64,000 nt of DNA. Source: Escherichia coli. Its GTDB lineage: Bacteria > Pseudomonadota > Gammaproteobacteria > Enterobacterales > Enterobacteriaceae. Of the stretch, positions 1,620-61,083 are shown in pieces. Made by a program: the position numbers and the translations under genes. The stretch lies in assembly GCF_029227855.1 (NCBI RefSeq), contig NZ_CP074356.1. One strand, 5' to 3'. Position 1 is the first letter of the stretch. Each line of letters opens with the position of its first letter. The notes beneath the pieces were generated by a model. The model was given only the letters and a program-made list of their open reading frames with translations. It was not told the origin of the DNA and searched no databases.

Positions 1620-2330
1620 ATAAATAAATATCCTCCGGCATAGCCGGAGGTTTTTCAAATGCGCCTATAAGGCTCTCTTACCAGCCGCGCCCTAACAGGC
1701 GCACACGATCTGACATTTGCATCCAACTTCGTTACTTACGGCCCGTAAACGGGCTGCCCGGATAGGGAATCGATAACTGCTCTCCCATTTTATCCTCTTC
1801 AAGCTGGTGCTTTATGTAATCCTGTATCTTCGCCGTGTTCTTACCCACCGTATCGACGTAATACCCTCTGCACCAGAACTCCCTGTTCCTGTATTTGAAT
1901 TTCAAATCACCAAACTGCTCGTAAAGCATCAGACTGCTTTTCCCTTTCAGATATCCCATAAAGCCTGATACGCTCATTTTGGGCGGGATCTCCACAAGCA
2001 TATGGATATGATCTGCACAGCATTCAGCTTCCAGAATCCGTACACTTTTCCACTCACACAGCTTTCTCAAAATACAGCCTATTGCTCTACGCTTCTCTCT
2101 GTAGAACACCTGTCTTCGGTATTTTGGCGCAAATACTATGTGATATTTACAGTTCCATCGGGTGTGCGCTAAGCTCTTTTCGTTCCCCATTGGGACCCCC
2201 TTTTGATTTCTTGTTTGACACTTGCAGTTGCCAGACCGCAAGGTGTTTTAACAAATCAAAAGGGGTTTTAATAACTGGCTCAAAGCTGAAAGCTTTCCGG
2301 AACCCCCAGCCTAGCTGGGGGTTTTCTGTG
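1620..2330 (-). mobile_element. IS200 insertion sequence (IS200/IS605 family), ends approximate
   Basis: Carries a 152-aa HuH Y1 transposase gene; perfect palindrome aacccccagcctagctgggggtt at 2301-2323 plus a downstream aaaacccctttt / aaaaggggg pairing upstream of tnpA match the IS200 left-end structures; hairpin cctccggcatagccggagg at 1632-1650 near the other end. Boundaries inferred from the expected ~0.7 kb element size, not from alignment. Confidence 0.7.
1732..2190 (-). CDS. tnpA: IS200 transposase TnpA (HuH single-strand DNA transposase)
   Basis: ORF 1732..2241; start placed at the internal Met (MGNEKSLAHTRWNCKYHIVFAPKYRR..), giving 152 aa; HuH motif HIHMLVEIPP and conserved Tyr-containing C-terminal region. 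Confidence 0.85.
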   Translation of the reverse strand: MGNEKSLAHTRWNCKYHIVFAPKYRRQVFYREKRRAIGCILRKLCEWKSVRILEAECCADHIHMLVEIPPKMSVSGFMGYLKGKSSLMLYEQFGDLKFKYRNREFWCRGYYVDTVGKNTAKIQDYIKHQLEEDKMGEQLSIPYPGSPFTGRK

Positions 2331-12913: not shown

Positions 12914-13186
12914 ATGTCTCATACAATCCGTGATAAACAGAAACTGAAAGCGCGTGCCAGTAAGATTCAGGGCCAGGTCGTGGCGCTCAAGAAAATGCTC
13001 GACGAACCGCATGAATGCGCTGCAGTATTACAACAGATTGCTGCTATCCGTGGCGCGGTAAACGGTCTGATGCGGGAAGTGATTAAAGGCCATCTGACGG
13101 AACACATCGTTCACCAGGGGGATGAGCTAAAACGTGAAGAAGATCTGGATGTCGTTCTGAAGGTGCTGGATTCTTATATCAAATAA
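12914..13186 (+). CDS. rcnR: Ni/Co-responsive transcriptional repressor RcnR (CsoR/RcnR family)
   Basis: 90-aa [24 protein letters not shown]..; divergent from rcnA. Confidence 0.9.
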
Positions 13187-13274
13187 TTTCACAACGTTAT
13201 TGTAATACCGCCGTTTTTCCCCGTTTACAACGCGTGCGCTGGACATTACCATCCTCCTCTGCGATTTATTATCG

Positions 13275-13400
13275 CAACCAAACGACTCGGGGTGCCCTTC
13301 TTTGTGAAGGCTGAGAAATACCCGTATCACCTGATCTGGATAATGCCAGCGTAGGGAAGTCACGGACCACCAGGTCATTGCTTCTTCACGTTATGGCAGG
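13275..13400 (+). promoter_or_regulatory. TPP riboswitch (THI element) in the thiM leader
   Basis: Conserved thi-box core ..ggggtgcccttc..gtgaaggctgagaaatacccgtatcacctgatctggataatgccagcgtagggaagtc.. immediately upstream of the thiM start; ends approximate. Confidence 0.8.
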
Positions 13401-13408
13401 AGCAAACT

Positions 13409-14197
13409 ATGCAAGTCGACCTGCTGAGTTCAGCGCAATCTGCGCACGCGTTACACCTTTTTCACCAACATTCCCCTCTTGTGCACTGCATGACCAACGA
13501 TGTGGTGCAAACTTTTACTGCCAATACCTTGCTGGCGCTCGGCGCATCGCCAGCGATGGTTATCGAAACCGAAGAGGCCAGTCAGTTTGCGGCTATCGCC
13601 AGTGCCTTGTTGATTAACGTTGGCACGCTGACGCAGCCACGAGCGCAAGCGATGAGTGCTGCCGTTGAGCAAGCAACACGATCACAAACGCCCTGGACGC
13701 TTGATCCGGTTGCGGTTGGTGCGCTCGATTATCGCCGCCGTTTTTGTCTGGAACTTCTGTCCCATAAGCCAACCGCCATACGTGGTAATGCTTCGGAAAT
13801 CATGGCATTAGCTGGCGTTGCTAATGGTGGACGGGGAGTGGATACCACTGATGCCGCAGCTAACGCGATACCTGCTGCACAAACACTGGCACGGGAAACT
13901 GGCGCAATCGTCGTGGTCACAGGCGAGGTGGATTATGTTACCGATGGTCATTGCACCGTTGGCATTCACGGTGGCGATCCGCTAATGACCAAAGTGGTAG
14001 GAACTGGCTGTGCATTATCGGCAGTTGTCGCTGCCTGTTGTGCGTTACCAGGCGATATGCTGGAAAATGTCGCATCTGCCTGTCACTGGATGAAACAAGC
14101 CGGAGAACGCGCAGTCGCCAGAAGCGAGGGGCCAGGCAGTTTTGTTCCACATTTCCTTGATGCGCTCTGGCAATTGACGCCGGAGGTGCAGGCATGA
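13409..14197 (+). CDS. thiM: Hydroxyethylthiazole kinase
   Basis: 262-aa ORF downstream of the TPP riboswitch; ThiM-like sequence. Confidence 0.9.
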
Positions 14198-14994
14198 AAC
14201 GAATTAACGCTCTGACGATTGCTGGTACTGATCCGAGTGGTGGTGCGGGGATTCAGGCCGATCTTAAAACCTTCTCGGCACTTGGCGCTTATGGTTGCTC
14301 AGTGATTACTGCACTGGTGGCGCAAAATACCCGTGGCGTACAGTCGGTGTATCGCATTGAGCCTGATTTTGTCGCCGCCCAGCTCGATTCGGTGTTCAGC
14401 GATGTGCGAATCGACACCACTAAAATCGGTATGTTGGCGGAAACCGATATTGTTGAAGCGGTGGCAGAACGGTTGCAACGTTATCAGATCCAAAACGTGG
14501 TACTCGACACCGTTATGCTGGCAAAAAGCGGCGACCCACTGCTTTCACCTTCGGCAGTTGCCACGCTACGCAGTCGATTATTGCCACAGGTTTCATTAAT
14601 AACGCCAAACTTGCCCGAAGCTGCCGCCTTGCTCGACGCGCCACACGCGCGCACCGAACAGGAAATGCTGGAACAAGGGCGATCGCTGTTGGCGATGGGC
14701 TGTGGCGCAGTGCTAATGAAAGGTGGTCATCTGGATGATGAGCAAAGCCCGGACTGGCTGTTTACTCGCGAGGGAGAACAACGATTTACTGCACCGCGCA
14801 TTATGACCAAAAACACCCACGGCACTGGTTGTACGCTCTCTGCGGCGTTGGCTGCACTACGCCCGCGCCATACAAACTGGGCTGACACCGTACAGGAGGC
14901 AAAAAGCTGGCTTTCATCGGCGTTAGCCCAGGCCGACACGCTGGAAGTTGGTCACGGTATTGGTCCGGTTCACCACTTCCACGCCTGGTGGTGA
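14194..14994 (+). CDS. thiD: Hydroxymethylpyrimidine / phosphomethylpyrimidine kinase
   Basis: 266-aa ORF, start overlaps the thiM stop (ATGA); PfkB-like ribokinase fold motifs. Confidence 0.9.
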
Positions 14995-29557: not shown

Positions 29558-29584
29558 AAAAAATAAGCCCGTGTAAGGGAGATT
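29558..29584. other. Phage P2-type attachment core (attB) overlapping the CyaR 3' end; appears unoccupied
   Basis: Sequence aaaaaataagcccgtgtaagggagatt equals the P2 att core as recalled from memory; no ogr/P2-like genes flank it here. Confidence 0.45.
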
Positions 29585-29644
29585 ACACAGGCTAAGGAGG
29601 TGGTTCCTGGTACAGCTAGCATTTTATGGGTTATGTTTTTCAGC
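29558..29644 (-). ncRNA. cyaR: CyaR (RyeE) Hfq-dependent small RNA
   Basis: Minus strand reads GCUGAAAAACAUAACCCAUAAAAUGCUAGCUGUACCAGGAACCACCUCCUUAGCCUGUGUAAUCUCCCUUACACGGGCUUAUUUUUU, matching the CyaR sequence as recalled, including the terminal hairpin and U-tail. Confidence 0.8.
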
Positions 29645-29728
29645 GAAACAGATGATAACCTTAATAAATGCAGCTGTATGTGATCGGTTTCTAAGAATTT
29701 TCCATCCGGGAAAAATAATCGAAATTAA

Positions 29729-45169: not shown

Positions 45170-45310
45170 CGCTGAAACGGGAAAGCCCCTCCCGAGGAAG
45201 GGGCCATAAATAAATAAGGAAAGGGTCATGATGAAGCTACTCATCATCGTGGTGCTCTTAGTCATTAGCTGGCCAGCTTACTAAGACTACCAGGGCGGGG
45301 GAAACCCCGC
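45170..45310 (-). ncRNA. sib: Sib-family antisense sRNA (antitoxin) covering ibs copy 1; ends approximate
   Basis: Sib antitoxins are encoded fully antisense to ibs; minus-strand hairpin gcccctc/gaggggc at 45184-45204 followed by a U-rich stretch could be the 3' end. Confidence 0.5.
45228..45284 (+). CDS. ibs: Ibs-family type I toxin (18 aa, MMKLLIIVVLLVISWPAY)
   Basis: Small hydrophobic ORF preceded by aaggaaagggtc SD; matches the Ibs toxin family pattern. Below the ORF-track length cutoff. Confidence 0.75.
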   Translation: MMKLLIIVVLLVISWPAY

Positions 45311-45497
45311 TCTACCCTCACTCCTGAAAGTATGCCTTCACGATAAGATTGTCAATCTGCAGGCTTTGCAGTCTGCGATCCTGCCAGCAAATATTCTTTG
45401 CGAGACGTTACGCAATAATCACACTGGAAACTATTTTATCCGCAAGTCAGCGATAGACTGCATACAGGGCGAAAGGAGGTAAGCCGACGATTTCAGC

Positions 45498-45638
45498 GGG
45501 ACGCTGAAACGGGAAAGCCCCTCCCGAGGAAGGGGCCTTAAATAAGGAAAGGGTCATGATGAAGATACTCATCATCGTGGTGCTCTTAGTGATTAGCTAC
45601 CCAGCATACTAAGACTACCAGGGCGGGGGAAACCCCGC
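45498..45638 (-). ncRNA. sib: Sib-family antisense sRNA covering ibs copy 2; ends approximate
   Basis: Position inferred by repeat periodicity relative to copy 1. Confidence 0.45.
45556..45612 (+). CDS. ibs: Ibs-family type I toxin (18 aa, MMKILIIVVLLVISYPAY)
   Basis: Second repeat unit; same SD and ORF architecture. Confidence 0.75.
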   Translation: MMKILIIVVLLVISYPAY

Positions 45639-45826
45639 TCTACCCTCACTCCTGAAATTATGCCTTCACGATAAGATTGTCAATCTGCAGGCTTTGCAGT
45701 CTGCGATCCTGCCAGCAAATATTCTTTGCGAGTCGTTACGCAATAATCACAGAGGAAACTATTTTGTTCACGCGTTAGCGATAGACTGCATTCAGGGCGA
45801 AAGGAGGTAAGCCGACGATTTCAGCG

Positions 45827-45967
45827 GGACGCTGAAACGGGAAACCCTCTCCCGGAGAAGAGGGCTTTTAATAAGGAAAGGGTTATGATGAAGCACGTCA
45901 TCATACTGGTGATACTCTTAGTGATTAGCTTCCAGGCTTACTAAGAACACCAGGGGGAGGTGGAAAC
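45827..45967 (-). ncRNA. sib: Sib-family antisense sRNA covering ibs copy 3; ends approximate
   Basis: Position inferred by repeat periodicity. Confidence 0.45.
45885..45944 (+). CDS. ibs: Ibs-family type I toxin (19 aa, MMKHVIILVILLVISFQAY)
   Basis: Third repeat unit; variant C-terminus (FQAY). Confidence 0.7.
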   Translation: MMKHVIILVILLVISFQAY

Positions 45968-46164
45968 CTCTCCCTAACCCTCACTCCTGAAATTATGTCA
46001 CTCCGCCCTTAGTGTCAATCGACGGCTCTCCGTTCTTGCGAGGCGAATAGCAAAATTTTCTGCGCCGCCGGGCCTAATTCTGAAAGTTTCTTCGTTTGCT
46101 CTTATTTCATTATTGCAGTCGGTATGATACCGGACCTCAATAATTCTCTAAGAAAGGATTTCTT

Positions 46165-60613: not shown

Positions 60614-61071
60614 AGTAAGTACAAAACCTATTCGTTGTATGACAAATGTCACAATTCGATCATGGATAAATCAGGGCAAAAATGCAATGTTACGGCACTA
60701 TTTATCTCACATTATTTGAGGATTATAACATCGCATTATCCCTGAATTAAAAGTGGTAATAATAAAATATTATTTAAGAAATATCGCATATAGATACGCC
60801 GTATTAAATATTGTCAACATAAAGAAACTCCTAAAAAATACCACACATGACACTTAATATAATTCTTAAAAATAGCCAATTGCCGATTTGTTACCTTGCC
60901 TGCAATTCCGTTAGCTGTAACACTTCCTCCTGCATTATTGTAGAGCTAATATTCAATTACCATAATGCCACCTTATATCTGGAAAATTAATATCCGGAAT
61001 AACGCTTTTTCATAAACGACTGCGTTAGAAAATCTAAGCTAAATCAGTGTATTGGTAGCTAAAAAGCCAGG

Positions 61072-61083
61072 GGCGGTAGCGTG
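61072..61083 (+). promoter_or_regulatory. ops element (RfaH recruitment site) within a JUMPstart-like leader upstream of wza
   Basis: Exact ggcggtagcgtg in the long AT-rich leader about 180 bp upstream of the wza start. Confidence 0.6.

Follow-up and report, generated by a model that had tools for sequence, protein, structure and literature searches.

The TPP riboswitch upstream of thiM in Escherichia coli is among the best-characterised riboswitches. A crystal structure of its aptamer was reportedly obtained by Edwards in 2006. The K-12 element (RF00059) has been studied as a 165-nt construct (Winkler 2002, Rentmeister 2007), and a crystal structure of its aptamer was also described by Serganov (2006). 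TPP binding, probed structures, in vivo repression and Rho dependence are all established for the K-12 sequence (PMC1920254, PMC5499598). In the chemical and enzymatic probing of the TPP-free RNA by Rentmeister et al., nt 71-86 paired with nt 125-108, nt 92-103 folded into a hairpin whose loop is ACCA, and the SD nucleotides 126-129 were unpaired or modified (PMC1920254). Bastet 2017 then described a repression of translation that leads to termination by Rho within thiM codons 20-34, with a rut region near +200, Rho termination sites at +231, +237 and +262, and a stem-loop that is required for regulation (PMC5499598).

Here we analysed 64,000 nt of an E. coli chromosome (NZ_CP074356.1 in GCF_029227855.1), hereafter the window, and found that it carries an intact and ordinary E. 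coli thiM TPP riboswitch, an element that is already known. With a probability of roughly 97%, we read positions 13260-13411 as the thiMD 5′ leader with this riboswitch, acting by SD sequestration and then by Rho termination. As the thiM riboswitch is so well characterised and is both present and intact here, it can be annotated with confidence, although it adds little significance to the window itself. The label of an expected housekeeping cis-regulator, given to it in a preliminary description made from the sequence, is apt; the element is the known K-12 riboswitch save for two bases of an unpaired loop.

That description had placed a TPP riboswitch before thiMD at 13275-13400 and had suggested a covariance-model scan as the check. 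The scan was run and bears the description out: RF00059 matches over its full model (1-105) at 13278-13374 on the plus strand with 71.2 bits, well above the curated gathering score of 54.3 bits. The E-value was 5e-12 for the 64-kb window (both strands, 4227 Rfam families) and 2.7e-14 when 13150-13500 was scanned alone, and a permissive Rfam scan of both strands of 13150-13500 returned neither a second family nor a minus-strand match at E ≤ 1. The 51-nt thi-box core quoted in the description has a single exact occurrence in the window, at 13311-13361. The riboswitch lies 35 nt 5′ of the thiM ATG, on the same plus strand, in the 5′ UTR of a thiamine gene. The choice of thiM as the regulated gene was also right: an ORF starts with the ATG at 13409, thiD comes next, and RefSeq annotates identical DNA in the same way. 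Indeed, in a strain with 100% identity over 13187-13420, RefSeq places a "TPP riboswitch" (thiM) at the equivalent position, and the same identity was seen in several complete E. coli genomes. The neighbourhood is that of the E. coli chromosome, with yehB, yehA, rcnB, rcnA (minus strand), rcnR, thiM, thiD, yegX and yegW.

Thermodynamics alone would not identify this leader RNA. The MFE z-scores are -1.93 for the plus strand and -1.35 for the minus strand and do not discriminate between them, so that the plus strand was assigned from the covariance-model match and the gene context. The modest score of the leader is expected of an RNA with two competing folds.

Other RNA elements were found elsewhere in the window. 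Three tandem copies of the Sib antitoxin RNA (RF00113) occupy 45213-46018 on the minus strand (140-149 bits, with a spacing of about 330 nt). STnc490 (2200-2323, minus strand, 146 bits), CyaR/RyeE (29561-29646, minus strand, 101 bits) and a JUMPstart element (61045-61083, plus strand, 57 bits) all score above their Rfam gathering scores.

The leader can be followed from its predicted start. A sigma-70 consensus scan predicts a promoter-like site of thiMD at 13224-13252 (+), with a TTTACA -35, a 17-nt spacer and a TACCAT -10 (9 of 12 matches), which would place the transcription start at about 13260 and give a 5′ UTR of about 149 nt. This agrees with the numbering of Bastet 2017, derived from the transcription start, in which codon 9 begins at nt 174 and the AUG is hence at +150 (PMC5499598). 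At the 5′ end of the predicted transcript, before the aptamer, both the MFE and the centroid fold contain a small hairpin of 6 bp, UGCGAU-UUAUU-AUCGCA (13260-13276, +). Its sole difference from K-12, at 13270, sits in the loop (U here, C in K-12), and the hairpin is left undiscussed in the two thiM papers PMC1920254 and PMC5499598.

Within the Rfam limits, the core of the aptamer (13284-13361, +) is a three-way junction of helices P1 to P5. P1 pairs 13284-13287 with 13358-13361, P2 13288-13293 with 13318-13324, P3 13294-13300 with 13306-13311, P4 13330-13333 with 13352-13355, and P5 13336-13339 with 13346-13349; in the window, each of these 23 pairs is either canonical or G-U. P3 ends in the terminal loop UUUGU (13301-13305), which is UGCGU in K-12. 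Two parts of the thi-box are invariant in all 15 Enterobacterales leaders that we compared: J3/2, whose CUGAGA at 13311-13316 is the pyrimidine-sensing part, and the P4/P5 segment ACCUGAUCUGGAUAAUGCCAGCG at 13329-13351. Nucleotide N of the literature numbering corresponds to position 13273+N of the window. G13313 in J3/2 is therefore G40, and the G40A mutant is unable to bind the ligand (PMC5499598).

Folding of the leader gave two alternative structures that share the anti-SD strand UUGCUUCUUCA (13378-13388, +). When 13278-13425 is folded without constraint, the MFE is -44.3 kcal/mol, and the 3′ half of the aptamer, made of the 3′ strands of P5, P4 and P1 (13344-13359), acts as an anti-sequestor, with 13344-13352 and 13354-13359 paired with 13381-13398. 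In this fold the hairpin GACC-ACCA-GGUC (13365-13376, paper nt 92-103, probed with its ACCA loop) closes and caps the ON-state helix, the anti-SD strand is paired with 13354-13362, and the SD is open. The free MFE of the window thus reproduces the probed TPP-free structure of K-12 (PMC1920254). When the aptamer is enforced, the energy is -36.2 kcal/mol and the anti-SD strand pairs within 13394-13405, UUGCUUCU (13378-13385) being paired with the SD region AGGAGCAA (13398-13405). The SD GGA is unpaired with a probability of 0.81-0.85 in the free ensemble, a value that falls to 0.00 once the aptamer is enforced. The GGAG (13399-13402), six bases 5′ of the ATG, is thus hidden in the aptamer-enforced fold, in agreement with the earlier claim that the SD of thiM lies in the expression platform. 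As the anti-SD strand takes part in both the anti-sequestor and the sequestor helix, the two helices are mutually exclusive. On these folding energies, the gap of 8.1 kcal/mol between the two folds would have to come from ligand binding, tertiary contacts or co-transcriptional folding. Family membership, the two exclusive folds and the conservation of the sequestering helix across relatives, described below, were all computed here.

These structures suggest how the switch would work in the window. When TPP is scarce, 13344-13359 would pair with 13381-13398, leaving the SD GGAG free and allowing thiM and thiD to be translated. The two genes encode a hydroxyethylthiazole kinase of 262 aa (thiM, 13409-14197, +) and, as the second gene of the operon, a hydroxymethylpyrimidine/phosphomethylpyrimidine kinase of 266 aa (thiD, 14194-14994, +), both supported by the ORF and RefSeq; the thiD start overlaps the thiM stop by 4 nt (ATGA). 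When TPP is bound, the P1-P5 aptamer would be stabilised and the anti-SD strand released to pair with AGGAGCAA, thereby blocking ribosome binding. The untranslated mRNA would then expose a C-rich region at about 13454-13481 on which Rho could load, and termination at about 13490-13521 would lower the thiMD mRNA as well.

The elements of this second layer can be placed in the window by position. The stretch of thiM at 13454-13481 (+) is rich in C and poor in G (43% C, 4% G) and is the same as in K-12; it probably corresponds to the published rut region, and the sites +231, +237 and +262 would fall at about 13490, 13496 and 13521. A scan also found a stem-loop with a 10-pair stem and an 8-nt loop over thiM codons 25-34 (13482-13509, +), whose only difference from K-12, at 13498, is in the loop. 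With the rut region identical to that of K-12 and the stem-loop differing only in its loop, the Rho elements are intact, and the two-layer K-12 mechanism would be expected to apply unchanged.

One could also imagine that control is mainly transcriptional, with TPP directly exposing a Rho site or forming a terminator and with translational control secondary or absent. TPP does lower the thiMD mRNA, Rho termination has been mapped to the early thiM coding region (PMC5499598), and in the window a stem-loop is followed by a T-rich run at 13482-13519. However, the sequence scan found no site resembling an intrinsic terminator from the aptamer to the start codon, the platform is a textbook SD-sequestering hairpin, and PMC5499598 concludes that Rho termination results from the repression of translation, with the Rho elements in the ORF and not in the riboswitch. 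We therefore consider a mainly transcriptional mechanism very improbable and retain SD sequestration followed by Rho termination.

Over 13274-13426 the window is identical to K-12 MG1655 (L004) except at 13302-13303, which are TT here and GC in K-12. The two riboswitches share their locus, gene order and aptamer helices, as well as the anti-SD/SD platform and the ON-state helix. The two positions that differ, nt 29-30 in the literature numbering, belong to the 5-nt P3 loop, which Rfam models as insert columns, and nt U28-U32 of this loop were unpaired by probing (PMC1920254). Of 5426 complete E. coli genomes, 5424 have the aptamer; 983 genomes match that of the window at ≥99%, and 4404 fall in the 95-99% band, which holds the K-12-type allele. 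In thiM leaders of other genera of Enterobacterales, the loop form of the window, CUUCUUUGUGAAG (UUUG), is the commonest, and for this reason the loop of K-12 is probably derived. The UUUG allele is also common in ST131-type strains.

The differences from K-12 are unevenly spread around the riboswitch. Of the 153 nt of the riboswitch stretch, 2 are changed, as against 8 of 35 in the intergenic region just upstream of it and of the promoter (13187-13221). In thiM, 49 nt (6.2%) and 15 aa are changed, compared with 1.6% and no aa changes in thiD and 1.8% in rcnR. It is possible that the uneven divergence of thiM reflects recombination near an integration hotspot (see below).

Given the two bases that differ from the characterised K-12 aptamer, and a thiM that is unusually diverged when set against thiD, one may ask whether the aptamer has decayed and regulation has been lost. 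Yet the P3-loop differences fall in unpaired nucleotides and in variable insert columns, the UUUG form is the commonest in other genera, and 983 E. coli genomes share the aptamer. In addition, the window aptamer and the K-12-type copy have the same Rfam score (71.2 bits), and the thiM ORF is full-length. Loss of function is thus exceedingly unlikely, and by its sequence the window allele, two P3-loop bases apart from K-12, would be expected to behave like the K-12 riboswitch.

We compared the leader with those of relatives by using 15 Enterobacterales thiM leaders (Escherichia, Citrobacter, Enterobacter, Superficieibacter, Mixta, Pantoea and Acerihabitans), chosen by an exact 22-mer. The RNAalifold consensus consists of P1-P5 and a CUUCU:AGGAG helix that is kept in 13 to 15 of the 15 leaders, the anti-SD CUUCU being invariant or nearly so. 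Double changes occur in 3 of the 28 consensus pairs, and the aptamer, anti-SD and SD are nearly invariant in this 22-mer-selected set; at the level of sequence, support for the sequestering helix is conservation, not covariation. Both strands of the hairpin between P1 and the anti-SD vary among genera (GAUGCC/GGCAUC, GACAC/GUGUC), as read by eye. In ensemble folding, a clear SD switch was seen in the three Escherichia leaders only, the result being ambiguous and inconsistent in the other genera; for these, the conserved helix is what we rely on.

The 22-mer itself, the P4/P5 core CCTGATCTGGATAATGCCAGCG, was found exactly in at least 120 species-representative genomes (loci L014-L133), from Omnitrophota, Bacteroidota, Bacillota, Chloroflexota, Spirochaetota, Burkholderiales and other groups. 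Such exact conservation is unusually deep for non-coding DNA and makes the core an attractive integration target.

Some E. coli genomes match only part of the aptamer, beside phage genes. With the 97-nt aptamer as the query, 235 of the 5424 matching genomes had two places of match, and 87 were without any copy covering ≥80% of it. The aptamer is uninterrupted in the window and in K-12; in other E. coli genomes it serves as two distinct attB sites, with repeats flanking insertions that bear an integrase.

The first site is already known from published PICI work. Its attB core AGAAATACCCGTAT, unoccupied in the window, lies at 13314-13327, in J3/2 and the 3′ strand of P2, with junctions in three loci (L139, L140 and L002). 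The attL reads ...GGCTG, core, TTTCTCATTTAG, and the attR ...TTAGTA, core, CACCTGATC. The element, a PICI-type satellite of about 11 kb, codes for an integrase of 406 aa, a repressor, a primase, a protease/major-head fusion and a small terminase. Its integrase was found in 76 of 5426 complete E. coli genomes, and the rcnR-thiM location was seen at the loci inspected. This 14-mer also appears in Table S1 of Fillol-Salom et al. 2018 (PMC6092414), where it is given as the att site of the PICI EcCI224 with the location "frmR-thiM"; the word "riboswitch" has zero occurrences in the main text of that paper. Integration at this site splits the aptamer and leaves a thiM-side remnant of 36.9 bits. In the folded thiM leader of such a lysogen, the ON-state helix was kept and the SD was paired with arbitrary upstream sequence of the element. 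This family destroys the riboswitch, and thiMD should thereby lose its link both to TPP and to its native promoter.

The second site is used by islands that carry part of the aptamer with them. Its attB has the minimal repeat AATGCCAGCGTAG at 13342-13354 and is likewise unoccupied in the window; attL/attR junctions were seen in L003, L005-L012 and L144. The junctions fall directly after GCCAGCGTAG (13354-13356), and the identity of the islands to the leader can extend back to as far as 13275. The islands measure 7.7-13.5 kb, and the first gene after attL, on the thiM strand, codes for a tyrosine integrase (PF00589) of 435-452 aa, of which five variants compared were 70-94% identical. Relatives of this integrase are encoded by 173 of the 5426 complete E. 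coli genomes, again with the rcnR-thiM location at the loci inspected. The cargo is variable: one class carries an HNH endonuclease, an HTH protein and a resolvase, among others, and another class has an AAA_15/AAA_21 ATP-dependent nuclease together with an E-type capsid gene and a tape-measure gene. The att repeat ranges from 13 nt (AATGCCAGCGTAG; L006) to about 71 nt, imperfect, in YJR and 82 nt, perfect (13275-13356), in CREC-544. The aptamer copy supplied by the YJR island has its own P3 loop, and the longer classes have a full aptamer of 71.2-75 bits on the thiM side. In CREC-544, the integrase-side aptamer also scores above the Rfam threshold (61.3 bits), with 67 nt between it and the start codon of int; here two TPP riboswitches are annotated by RefSeq, one of them upstream of the integrase gene.

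No report of the second site as an attachment site was found in the literature searched, where the sole relevant item was the PICI supplement (PMC6092414), and neither the aptamer DNA nor the integrase protein of this site was found among the INPHARED phage genomes. We had considered a single prophage with a 41-nt core (13314-13354), a reading suggested by two partial matches, H18 (query 7-168) and H20 (query 128-234). It was rejected, as L139 and L140 show that the boundaries 13314 and 13354 belong to two elements with unrelated integrases. The IMG/VR contig L134 was likewise rejected as an attP, as a site-1 attR and then a site-2 attL stand in tandem on it.

Related insertions were seen in other genera. 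In Enterobacter sp. BIGb0383 (L086, 9554-11960), direct repeats of the aptamer, each about 80 nt long, flank an insert of 2.1 kb 5′ of thiM, with the same right-hand junction. The insert contains no integrase and three small hypothetical ORFs on the opposite strand, and is probably what remains of a site-2-type island in a genus other than Escherichia. In a Mixta genome, an integrase fragment lies 5′ of the thiM riboswitch.

In site-2 lysogens, int lies directly downstream of the host thiM promoter and of a near-complete TPP aptamer. As the attP of the island must contain this aptamer segment too, the excised form would also have it in front of int. One could therefore imagine that expression of the integrase, and hence excision and integration, responds to TPP through a hybrid riboswitch, but we regard this as improbable. 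Two candidate structures for such a switch were considered. In the attL leader of CREC-544, folding pairs AAACGACUC with GGGUCGUUU at the ribosome-binding site of int, a helix that might have stood in for P1 and made int responsive to TPP. Its 3′ partner, however, lacks conservation in the A23, ExPEC and YJR/SCU-316/A11 classes, and the helix forms with or without the aptamer enforced, so that it was retained only as an idea of low probability. A conserved hairpin, CUCUUUUUG...CAAAAAGGG, also precedes int and could be taken for an SD sequestor, but binding sites for recombination proteins in the putative attP arm would explain its conservation equally well.

More generally, if such a TPP response of the integrase is true, the thiM aptamer would be an integration hotspot with two sites, used and also restored by mobile elements. 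Two unrelated integrase families have their crossovers at two different sites in one aptamer of about 80 nt, and wild strains supply a natural set of thiM-riboswitch knock-outs and hybrids. That the conservation of the region is due to something else, either to a minus-strand ORF that overlaps it (13378-13127, 83 aa) or to the use of the two att cores inside the aptamer by mobile elements, is scarcely credible, as the ORF is unannotated in RefSeq and unsupported, and the aptamer core is kept without these elements across phyla that range from Omnitrophota to Bacillota, with at least 120 species genomes containing the exact 22-mer. The att sites would thus exploit the conservation of the aptamer rather than cause it, and the thiM TPP riboswitch is retained as the reading of the leader.

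Compared with other TPP riboswitches, the element in the window is of the translational type. According to passages of PMC5499598, PMC11487190 and PMC10578472, the thiC and thiB/tbpA riboswitches of E. coli share its aptamer class and ligand and also control translation initiation, and a passage of PMC4841613 places thiC additionally under direct transcriptional control. Their P4/P5 sequences and platforms are unlike those of thiM, and the exact 22-mer core occurs once in the window. The terminator-type TPP riboswitches of Bacillus and Neisseria have the same aptamer fold and ligand but work through an intrinsic terminator/antiterminator, whereas the thiM leader of the window has no terminator between the aptamer and the start codon, and its platform hides the SD.

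The two attachment sites can also be set against described integrative elements. The att core of EcCI224 is identical to 13314-13327 and to the junction repeats of L139 and L140, the window being without the element. Elements that integrate at tRNA, tmRNA and icd genes carry a replacement segment in their attP (principle; PMC10111431). The site-2 islands likewise carry 13-82 nt identical to their target, and the larger classes rebuild a full-scoring aptamer at thiM. However, their target is a cis-regulatory riboswitch and not an RNA or protein gene, and the side that they replace is the 5′ side, so that the native promoter is displaced from thiM and the integrase gene comes to lie downstream of it. 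The aptamer segment carried by the site-2 islands would thus extend the principle of a target-restoring attP to a cis-regulatory RNA.
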